Origin: Octopus sinensis
Lineage: Eukaryota
Assembly: GCF_006345805.1 (NCBI RefSeq)
Contig: NW_021836438.1
Span: 1 to 24,468 of the forward strand
Direction: 5' to 3'
Length of the DNA: 24,468 bases
A program made the translations under genes and the position numbers. Positions 2,146-16,555 of the stretch are shown here, piece after piece (position 1 is the first letter of the stretch; every line of letters starts with the position of its first letter). Under the pieces are notes generated by a model. It had not been told where the DNA came from. It did no database searches and saw only the letters and a program-made list of their open reading frames with translations.

Positions 2146-2319
2146 ATATAAGTAAAAAGTTTGTTATTGGCAAGTATAAGATAAAATCCTATATAAAATA
2201 CTACTAACAATTAGAAAAATTGAGAAGAGAACATGTTAAAAGTTCAAATTAAAATTTAATTTCCACATACGACCGTTTCAAATGGTAATACAAACATGTA
2301 AGAAAAAACATTAATTATG

Positions 2320-2385
2320 ATAATAATAATAATAATAATAATAATAATAATAATAATAATAATAATAATAATAATAACAATAATA
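2320..2385. repeat. (TAA)n microsatellite
   Basis: Read directly; continues at 2501-2521 after the insert. Confidence 0.95.
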
Positions 2386-2501
2386 ACACTTTCCATACAA
2401 TAACCATCAGAGCATCACAACAAATCACAGCACATACCCAAGGCACACAGAGCTGCGCTCGGTAGTGAAGTGAAAGCACGCTATAAAAATAAAACTACTG
2501 A
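2386..2501 (+). mobile_element. Severely 5'-truncated R4/Dong-type retrotransposon (last codons plus 3' UTR) in (TAA)n
   Basis: Homologous to the 3' end of the RLE element at 24115-24230 and differs by 2 substitutions from the reverse complement of 24373-24468. Flanked by (TAA)n on both sides. Confidence 0.85.
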
Positions 2502-2765
2502 ATAATAATAATAATAATAATTAAAATGGTTATTTATTACCATTCTCGTCAGTTTAAAAAATTAAAAGAAAACATCAAAGAAGGTATTACCGAAAGAGTG
2601 GAAAAAGAATTAGATACAGGAACATGTTAATGTATTTACGAGTCTATCGGTGAAATAAACTATAACTGTTGTGGCCAATCGATATTTTTAAATATAAGTA
2701 GGAAAAAACCGAGGTAAGAGGTAAGGAATGGAGTAGATAATGTCCGGGCTACGTATGTTTCATAA

Positions 2766-3512
2766 CAAGCAGAACCTAAGAAATGGTAGATGTTCAAGCG
2801 AGACCATTTGCAAAATGGTAGATGTTCAAGCGAGACCATTTGCAAAACGAGACCCTTTTAATTTTGCTCAGATTGCTTTCAATTTTGGTGTATCGATGCA
2901 ACTCTGAATTTTGATTACGATCAGCTAATTACTTTATTTCGTAAATTAAAGAACCTGATGTTACTTGAAATTAAAATTGCGAAATTGGGTAATTTCAGCC
3001 AATCAACAGAAAGCGGGGAATTAGCAGCTTGTTACCATCACAACCGCACGCTGTGTTGTGGTTCACTGTTGTCTGTGCCGCACGCTGTTCTATGTTGATT
3101 TTTCACCCCTGATTCTTACCACGAGATTATTTTCACCCGTGTGTTTTGTTTTAATTTTTCTCAGTGTTAGTATATTACATATTTCTGGGCTTTTTCTGTG
3201 TGTTAGTATTTTTACGTATTTTTCATTTCATATATTTTTGGAACACATTGACTCAAATAGCTGCATTTATGATTTCACTAGGTTAATTCAATTCATAAAA
3301 ATTTTAATTAGCAGTATTTCTTAAACCGTTAGCTTTACATTTCAACAGCTTGACTGCAATTTCGCCCACGTAACTGGAACTGAGACGGATATCCCGTGGA
3401 ACAGAGAAACTGGGTGATACAAATAATTTGACATTATTTTTGAATTCTGTTTGCAAAAACATATAAGATACGAGCATTTTTTCCCTTGGGACAAATTCTT
3501 TATTGACCAGTG
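2766..3512. mobile_element. Possible non-autonomous DNA transposon (Chapaev3-like termini)
   Basis: Right end ...ttgaccagtg|tta (CACTG on minus), left end taa|caagcagaacc. TWA-type flanks that are not identical. Subterminal sequence resembles elements recalled from memory; no ORF. Confidence 0.35.
2781..2844 (+). repeat. Perfect 32-bp tandem duplication
   Basis: aaatggtagatgttcaagcgagaccatttgca occurs twice (2781-2812, 2813-2844). Confidence 0.95.
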
Positions 3513-3589
3513 TTATTCTTATCGTAGTTTAGAAATCCAAGCATGGAAACGTTACTCAACTTTGGAGTTTTGGAGACAGATGCCCCTTT

Positions 3590-3668
3590 CACACACACAC
3601 ATACACACCACACACACACACACACACACACACACACACACACACACACACCACACATACACACACAT
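3590..3668. repeat. (CA)n microsatellite
   Basis: Read directly from the sequence. Confidence 0.95.
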
Positions 3669-14250: not shown

Positions 14251-14254
14251 TTGA

Positions 14255-14750
14255 TGAGAGACATATAGATGATCTAAAAGAAGACAATAAGACTAATGGC
14301 GACATGACAGATGACCAAAAGACAATCTACAACAGAATAAAGATAAGACTACAGGAGAACGATAGCGACATTATTTGCAACCTTAAAAAGGTTGATAGAT
14401 GGAAATTGAACCAAGAAACGAAAAATGTCAATGAAATTCTGAAATACATCAGAACAAACAAGACCACTGAAACAATTTGATCAAGGCAGTAAGAATTGTT
14501 GTGACAGAAAATGTGGGCGTTGATGTCAAGAAAAAGAAACATAGAAGGAGTGACAAAAAAAAAAAAGATCCATGGTGGTAAAGAAGAATCCAGGCAGGGT
14601 AAGACATGCTCTCGAAGGAAATTTGTGTGTTTGACAGAAAAGAGAAAGGGGAGCTAAAAAGTGAACGAAAATACGGGGCGCTGAAAAGGAAGTATAATAT
14701 TGAAAGAAAGGGCTTGAAAGTAGTAGTGGAGGAACTGAAACACAAATAGG
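14255..14750 (+). pseudogene. Decayed N-terminal ORF region of an R4/Dong-type retrotransposon
   Basis: LKKVDRWKLNQETKNVNEILKYIRT..TET../LIKAVRIVVTENVG...DPWW*RRIQ resembles the pre-RT region of R4/Dong ORFs. 12700-12863 is probably the left part of the same relic. Confidence 0.6.
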
Positions 14751-14954
14751 TGAATTTACATAAAAATGTTTATATATATATATATATATATATATATATA
14801 TAAATTTAAAATAATAAGGGTGAAAAATTGAATATTAATTTGATTAATATCAATTTAAATCCAGTGGTCTGGCGTATTGAAAAATCTGAAGTTTCAGAAA
14901 AATTCATATTACATACATATGAATGGGATGGCCACTTACAGGTCATCCCTTTTA

Positions 14955-15060
14955 TATGTATATATATATATATATATATATATATATATATATATATATA
15001 TATATAATATATATATATATATATATATATATATATATATATATATATATATATATACAT
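14955..15060. repeat. (TA)n microsatellite
   Basis: Read directly; another tract lies at 14770-14803. Confidence 0.95.
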
Positions 15061-15135
15061 ATGTGTGTATGGGTGTGTGTCTGTAAAATTGAATAAAATA
15101 TAGTCAACAAGGAGTACGGTTAGACAGCTATTTAA

Positions 15136-15245
15136 TAAAACCACACGTGTTTCGATACAACATAGATCCACATATACACAGGATTTAAATTAAGGAACGG
15201 TTTACCTGTATAATGGGATCCAGTTATATCTCTTCAGTTGATATA
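15136..15245 (-). ncRNA. Hammerhead-like motif with very long stem II, probably inactivated
   Basis: Minus: CTGAAGA-gatataactggatcccattatacagg-loop-cctgtgtatatgtggatctatgttgtatc-GAAAC-acgt-GTG. Palindromic ACACGTGT stem III; the cleavage triplet is GUG and stem I is poor. Confidence 0.6.
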
Positions 15246-16555
15246 TAATTGCTGCTCCGTTAGTACCCCTTGACTTGGAAGTATACCGTAATACTACCGA
15301 CTGTTTGGTAATTCTAAGTGTGAACGAGCTCTATTTTGTATGTATGTATGTGTGTATGGGTAGGCAGTTCGAAACGCAAACAAGCACGTTAAATAGGTTT
15401 GGTTAACTTTCAGGGTATTATTCGAACTAATTCCACAGTACGAAAACTGCTGAGATATTCTTCATTATCCTTTTATTCCTTCATGCCTCTCTTCATAACT
15501 TCATAATTTATAGCCTGGCTACTTGAAATGAATATATTTCTTTTTACAAAATATATGTTCGATATGCTTACGTTTAAAACTTATTTAATACTAGGTATTG
15601 CTTTTGAACACAGAAGTAAAGACCAAATATAATTTGTTACAGCCAAAGGGCGAATAAAGGATTTGAATTCTTCAACATTTCATATTGTTTTCTCTTTCTC
15701 CCTTGTAAACCTTAGGGAAATCTTGACTGTGTCATTCTTACTAAAACATGTGTATGAATGATTTTTCTACTCTATGGGTTGGGCTAGAAAAGAACACAAG
15801 CAACTGATATTTGAATACGTAAATTTGTATAAATACACATTTAAACACAAATACATATATACATACATAATATATACATATATATATATTTATGTGCACG
15901 CACGCACACACACATGCACACACATATATATACACACATATATGTAGAACAAAATATACAGAATAAAATATTTAAAAAATGTATCTTCTTAACTCAACAG
16001 CTGTTTCAGAAAGCTCAGACATAAGTAATAACCAAAATAATCATAATTTGTAGATGAAATGTGCAGAAAGTCATGGATATATTACCGCTAACCTGAAACC
16101 CGACTGTCTTCATAAAGAGAATTGTGACAAATACGGAGAAGTGTGACATTTTGCAGTGCAAGCACAAATATACGATTAAAGGATGAAAGGATTCAAAACC
16201 AGATCAAGCGTCAGGGAAAGAGGTAAAATAAGTTTAGAAGCTGAGGTATTTAGGTCGAAAATTTACGGTAGTGCAATTATAGAATGTATACGCATTGAAT
16301 CAAAAGATGGTGTAAATTCCAATCTTTAAGGGGGAATTTGTTACAGTAGTAATATATAATGAAAATCTCAGTATTTGTCATTAAATTACTCCAGATTTTA
16401 TATTTTTTAATATGACTTTTCACAGTTATGCATAAATTGCATTTCTTTTTACACACAATAAGTTGTCTGCTTCGCTACAGAAAGTTCTGGATAATATGAA
16501 AATCAGCATTATTTTGATTTAAAAGCATGGTGTATTTTTCTGTTCTTATTTTCAG

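Follow-up and report, generated by a model that had tools for sequence, protein, structure and literature searches.

How a short stretch of octopus DNA came to hold several hammerhead ribozyme (HHR) motifs of differing sequence, almost all on one strand and many of them close to dinucleotide repeats, is the question raised by this locus. The window analyzed here is a whole unplaced contig of 24,468 bases in a genome of 2.72 Gb; its strand is therefore arbitrary, and flanking genes cannot be read. With good confidence we interpret the seven motifs as hammerhead-bearing 3' ends from several families of Penelope-like elements (PLEs), those numbered 4, 5 and 6 being 5'-truncated copies of coding elements; in this reading the ends probably reached (TA)n tracts through target-primed reverse transcription, and the minus-strand skew is likely a matter of chance. 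The window content is ordinary: it samples a known and very abundant repeat class and consists of new members of known PLE clades. Extrapolation from 13 matches in 1.4 Mb gives about 13,000-43,000 descriptor-grade hammerheads in the genome. Palindromic stems III, the U3-A8 core, TA targeting and inverted partners are already published, as the accessible parts of two papers document (PMC4209133, PMC8557442).

Hammerhead motifs and their repeat families

The first-pass annotation of this DNA had listed seven HHR or HHR-like motifs, and all are present at their positions, each within a repeat family (Table 1). The type-I order with conserved core and three stems is seen directly in motifs 1, 4 and 5, whose cores are intact, and at the family level in motifs 3, 6 and 7, which are decayed; motif 2 is a variant. 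An exact-core type-I descriptor matched the window four times, at 2268..2552, 8826..8898 and 9407..9436 on the minus strand and at 6732..6764 on the plus strand. In a check run with one descriptor, three matches were obtained in the window against three in total in 200 dinucleotide shuffles, and a stricter descriptor gave two matches in the window versus none in 20 shuffles.

It is barely credible that the motifs are mere chance matches in AT-rich DNA. A loose descriptor allowing two core deviations does match across both strands, and an Rfam search of the window reported no hammerhead, only microsatellites matching miRNA models. Against chance stand the low yield of shuffled sequence (0.6 descriptor matches per Mb), the fact that each motif falls in some repeat family and the covariation of the stems. 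An alignment of 15 sequences from the family-4 lineage shows pairing in 92.6% of cells and changes on both sides in 8 of 20 pairs, a score equalled in none of 500 shuffles. Monomer folding energy beats that of shuffles only for motif 6 (z -3.7) and motif 5 (z -1.9) and is unremarkable in the other five of the seven. The palindromic stem III predicts that dimers would be needed for the putative cleavage.

Table 1. Positions of ribozyme motifs, associated element ends and (TA)n tracts in the window
Feature	Position	Strand	Description or basis
Motif 1	2268..2552	-	type-I HHR, core intact; stem II loop enlarged through later insertion
(TAA)n and LINE 3' end inside loop II of motif 1	2312..2521	+	inverted match and likeness to LINE end
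Motif 2, minus arm of inverted pair	6670..6702	-	decayed; fails descriptor
Motif 2, plus arm	6732..6764	+	U3-G8 HHR-like variant; better-preserved arm; passes descriptor
Motif 3	6872..6908	-	decayed copy; family relatives with canonical HHR
Family-3 half HHR (GAAA and stem III), inverted partner	7175..7200	+	sequence
(TA)n tract, 3' junction of element 4	8707..8784	.	
Element 4, Hydra-like PLE 3' end, ~500 nt	8785..9290	-	canonical HHR 8826-8898
(TA)n tract between element 4 (its 5' end) and element 5 (its 3' end)	9285..9351	.	
Element 5, Neptune-like PLE 3' end, 130 nt	9352..9481	-	U3-A8 HHR 9407-9436
(TA)n tract, 3' side of element 6	14953..15062	.	
Element 6, Hydra-like PLE 3' end	15075..15265	-	HHR 15142-15237, long stem II
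Element 6, inverted partner	15268..15340	+	tail of family 6 only, without ribozyme
Element 7, old 3' end	15945..16113	-	decayed U3-type HHR 15997-16113

Individual copies have decayed in different ways. A relative of motif 1 without the interruption lies at L092:135-230, in a family with 452 candidates. Loop II of motif 1 in the window harbors a decayed-LINE 3' end, seen as a 97% inverted match between 2406-2527 and 24347-24468, and the insert resembles the LINE end at ~24135-24230. Motif 2 has an additional base ahead of U3, and its family gives many matches in both orientations at a single place; an inverted pair with the same layout was found at locus L054. In motif 3, stem I is damaged and the core carries A6>G; its relatives have a complete core and a stem I of 5 bp. 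The family-3 insertion also contains a 162-nt inverted repeat (7018-7179 and 7245-7406, 88% complementary), and a TATA-like word occurs in the family-3 tail. The cleavage position of motif 6, from a family with 556 candidates, is G, and all 15 related copies have A there or at an adjacent position; the plus-strand partner of element 6 is 79-89% identical to tails at six family-6 loci. In motif 7 the core reads G5>U versus TTGATGA in two of nine aligned relatives, and copies of this family (109 candidates) are 72-88% identical. The segment 9475-9578, considered as a possible eighth half-motif, belongs to a different repeat.

As far as the accessible text of Cervera and De la Pena (2014, PMC4209133) describes them, minimal PLE hammerheads resemble the motifs of the window in their dispersal as single motifs, the U3-A8 core, the palindromic stem III, the occurrence of opposite-strand pairs 100-700 bp apart and the extra base after A9. 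Unlike these, the window HHRs often have a much longer stem II, up to ~90 nt including the loop.

Coding partners and assignment to Penelope-like clades

The motif-bearing inserts had been taken for multiple non-autonomous PLE-like families. The PLE origin is supported, whereas a non-autonomous status is not supported for families 4, 5 and 6, since RT and GIY-YIG sequences lie upstream; a check run for autonomous partners located both on the ribozyme strand in these three families. Because their longer copies reach coding sequence, families 4, 5 and 6 are 5'-truncated elements and not separate non-autonomous families, and at least three of the seven motifs are truncated copies.

Family 4 is represented by 2511 candidates, and copies of element 4 are 93-96% identical; a 28-nt word of its HHR has 644 exact copies in the genome, 331 forward and 313 reverse. 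At L002, L005, L006 and L009 the ribozyme strand carries an ORF that ends ~630 nt upstream. A complete element related to element 4 (L087, contig C7) consists of an inverted pLTR that ends at (TA)n, a direct pLTR, an open frame of 906 aa and a 3' pLTR, and thus shows the layout of EN+ PLEs, with pLTRs, an inverted 5'-truncated partner and a tail at one end. The terminal repeats of L087 are 98-99% identical, so this copy is probably recent; L088, on the same contig, is a truncated relative of it.

The family-4 protein (P0003) was not recognized in Pfam and PDB sequence searches. It contains DKT and YRDD, has no CCHH, carries CxxC and CxH near the C-terminus and reads RWL at the position of the RWK motif. 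Elements of the Hydra clade of EN+ PLEs, as characterized in the accessible parts of Craig et al. [quoted passage not shown] Further shared features are a sense HHR close to the 3' end, with a palindromic stem III, and insertion into (TA)n with an inverted 5'-truncated partner. Family 4 differs from the Hydra clade so described by its lack of CxCX5C, its N/S-rich spacer, the 906-aa frame and the longer stem II, and may differ also in RWL for RWK. Judged by these motifs, family 4 is Hydra-like, and for want of the CxCX5C linker it is not filed as canonical Hydra. In family 6 a decayed Hydra endonuclease lies upstream of the ribozyme at a single locus (L036), and this one decayed copy has kept CxCX5C, as in the Hydra clade.

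Family 5 (1164 candidates) has an RT and a GIY-YIG domain (PF01541, E 7e-5) upstream of the ribozyme at L024, of which 1366 nt are common to L021. Its protein (P0002) has a CX4CxxC linker, which fits the CX2-5CxxC pattern of the Neptune clade, CCHH and a C-terminal endonuclease, and by these motifs family 5 is putatively Neptune-like. The linker with its long spacer, CCHH, the C-terminal GIY-YIG, an HHR within the 3' repeat and TA junctions are all features of the Neptune clade, in a comparison confined to broken family-5 copies; the HHR core differs, being U3-A8 in family 5.

Families 1, 2, 3 and 7 could instead be true non-autonomous derivatives that spread as short ribozyme-bearing RNAs in the manner of retrozymes, an alternative that we consider rather unlikely though well worth weighing. 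Coding partners were looked for in ~11 loci of families 2 and 3 with 1.5 kb flanks and in one locus of family 1, and none was found. Copies of family 3 have ~400 nt in common and no TA junctions, and retrozymes are reported as derived from PLE termini in the accessible part of a recent study (10.64898/2026.07.22.740005). Against this reading, the search covered only ~11 loci per family with 1.5 kb flanks, old families are mostly truncated, and at L057 a family-7 copy adjoins an inverted, decayed Hydra-like RT, the sole family-7 match in a tblastn search of the fetched loci. Non-LTR retrozymes share with the motifs of the window the type-I HHR and the relation to PLEs, but according to the accessible texts (PMC7229834; 10.64898/2026.07.22.740005) they are tandem monomers of 170-400 nt, whereas in the window solo or inverted copies occur, and three of the families lead to coding elements. 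Tandem HHR-bearing monomers, in head-to-tail order, were looked for in the window and none was found.

Insertion at (TA)n tracts

Targeting of dinucleotide microsatellites by PLE-like families, as proposed in the first-pass annotation, is supported by the junctions of families 4 and 5 and is already published. Distances were measured past the cleavage site to dinucleotide tracts of at least five units. The annotated spacing, with the cleavage end mostly about 40-120 nt from such a tract, applies to five of the seven minus-strand motifs (40-84 nt) and fails for motifs 1 and 3 (451 and 242 nt). The tail of motif 3 exceeds 200 nt and does not adjoin TA, and 11 of 12 family-3 copies have no tract within 150 nt. 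Outside the window, a check run found a tract within 150 nt of 14 of 20 descriptor matches, whereas the background does not exceed 0.23 (p 1e-5); the corresponding proportion for random positions is 0.12-0.23.

The 41 family-4 ends divide into 23 at TA, 12 that read through into a 5' UTR-like tail and 6 others, so that with read-through ends left out 23 of 29 adjoin TA. The 23 ends of family 5 comprise 11 at TA, 10 read-through and 2 others. Where short copies of families 4, 5 and 7 join (TA)n, the read-through sequence carries a short AU-rich word. Element 4 in the window is bordered by TA on both sides, and truncated frames at L088, L089 and L095 start right after TA, which makes it likely that the tract is older than the insertion. 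Head-to-head pairs account for 28 of the first 100 of the 644 listed HHR-word matches (14 pairs).

Probably the GIY-YIG endonuclease of the element nicks a (TA)n tract, and the short AU-rich word, which lies ~50-60 nt beyond the cleavage site, pairs with the DNA at the nick. The RT would then copy the tail, the ribozyme and a variable length of the 3' UTR before stopping early, and would often leave a second, inverted piece. The copied DNA runs ~50 nt past the cleavage site, which implies that the template was uncleaved or re-ligated (circular) RNA; re-ligated circles are proposed in the accessible part of PMC4209133. A literature search returned nothing on microhomology priming in PLEs, with most subscription papers outside its scope.

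The role of the cysteine linker deserves attention in this context. The alignment in the accessible part of PMC8557442 has CxCX5C in nine of nine Hydra rows, and a tie between the motif and TA targeting is proposed there; the same source describes Hydra elements, among them Hydra-1_Obim from Octopus bimaculoides, as preferring (TA)n and as having HHRs in sense orientation, inverted partners and tails. In the family-4 lineage CxCX5C is present in 0 of 18 distinct linkers, with an N/S-rich spacer of 122-156 aa in its place, and still the 23 of 29 short ends mentioned above belong to this linker-less lineage. Tentatively, and with the odds somewhat against it, we suggest that this young and abundant lineage, Hydra-like in its motifs, still targets (TA)n after loss of the cysteine linker because an AU-rich word in the RNA of the element itself, 50-60 nt beyond the ribozyme, acts as the guide, with priming on uncleaved or circular RNA. 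If true, this would provide a natural test of microsatellite choice by Penelope-like elements and of the role of hammerheads. The lineage, with its intact 900-aa frames, could also serve the in vitro PLE system called for in PMC8557442.

Strand orientation and neighboring repeats

All motifs had been assigned to the minus strand, with plus-strand copies only as inverted duplicates. This is literally true but overstated: motifs 2, 3 and 6 occupy both strands, and for motif 2 it is the plus copy that passes the descriptor, whereas the minus one fails. Four insertions are minus-only, which corresponds to a two-sided p of 0.125 (five would give 0.0625). The skew had been attributed to selection against sense ribozymes in a plus-strand pre-mRNA; neither these four informative insertions nor a survey of gene interiors bears this out.

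The survey covered 1,197,600 bases of inter-exon sequence from 9 myosin and 7 ion-channel genes, with strand taken from Pfam exon matches and genes nested inside kept in. A homology search, run as a check for orientation bias within introns, returned 13 sense and 16 antisense copies (p=0.71), 16 of the 29 from one gene. Removal of four detected pairs left 9:12, and hand removal of one more overlapping pair and one doubtful match left 8:10 solo copies. The 95% interval of the sense share is 0.26-0.64; a sense share of 10% is rejected (p 2e-4), and for one of 25% the result is borderline (p 0.057). With the strict descriptor the matches were 1 sense to 2 antisense, and with the relaxed one 4:6. 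Copies with intact cores numbered 4 sense to 8 antisense, a difference that is not significant, and one of the four sense copies has a one-base core change; a mild antisense bias among intact cores would fit these counts. Three repeat families used as orientation controls in the same gene interiors were unbiased (104:98, 27:21 and 7:6). These abundant families, which we take to be SINE-like, are found in the window at 923-1190 (+), 1818-2150 and 22265-22700 (+).

Descriptor density was 8 per Mb in gene interiors (10 matches), 15 in random chromosomal sequence (3 in 200 kb), 35 in neighboring unplaced contigs (7 in 200 kb) and 123 in the window. The probability of at least three matches, judged against unplaced contigs, is 0.056 for a window that was itself chosen for its HHR motifs.

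The remaining explanation of the skew, that the window lies inside a hypothetical plus-strand gene from which sense self-cleaving inserts have been purged, appears improbable. The uniform orientation of all four minus-only insertions, the 4:8 ratio of intact cores, albeit non-significant, and the density minimum in gene interiors would agree with it. The 13:16 ratio overall and the 8:10 among solo copies in 1.2 Mb of gene interiors speak against purging, as do intact sense cores inside a channel gene and the plus-strand position of the large LINE relics of the window. PLE-type minimal HHRs are, moreover, poor monomer cleavers in vitro, the accessible part of PMC4209133 reporting low activity. 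A search for RNA sequences carrying 2560-12000 listed none. Contigs from four presumed-RNA runs, placed on 3680-7790, match repeats only and show no exon joint, which is neutral either way. An orientation bias in introns would have indicated that ribozymes cut host pre-mRNA, and this first test gives no support to such an effect; chance remains the likely source of the skew. A literature search found no report joining self-cleaving ribozymes, introns, orientation bias and transposable elements, although most subscription papers were outside its scope and absence from print is not established thereby. Depletion of retrozymes in introns is reported in 10.64898/2026.07.22.740005, in the accessible part of which the words 'orientation' and 'antisense' do not occur.

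On contigs C688, C1302, C2502, C7512, C8901, C9002 and C9308 the introns of myosin and channel genes are very short, in contrast to those of chromosomal genes; these contigs possibly represent another organism in the assembly and were left out of the orientation test. Loci L065 and L066 on contig C6, each 3.1 kb long, are 99.6% identical and 372 kb apart, and are either a segmental duplication or an assembly duplicate.

Several other repeats share the window. A 5'-truncated LINE at 12846-14250 (+) retains a 443-aa open RT frame (PF00078, E 8e-32). Decayed LINEs ending in (TAA)n, presumably R4/Dong-like by their motifs, lie at ~19500-21830 (+), 22700-24230 (+), 24374-24468 (-) and 2385-2521 (+) and give a weak zf-RVT match. 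A second copy of 10520-12760 was looked for in the genome and none was found. An inverted repeat around (TC)n(TA)n(GA)n at 9695-9835 is predicted to form a long hairpin. Two short TA-flanked repeats, at 1696-1762 and 14803-14950, look like joined PLE tails without an HHR, and the latter (148 nt) has 1041 candidates with ~90% identity over almost the full length.
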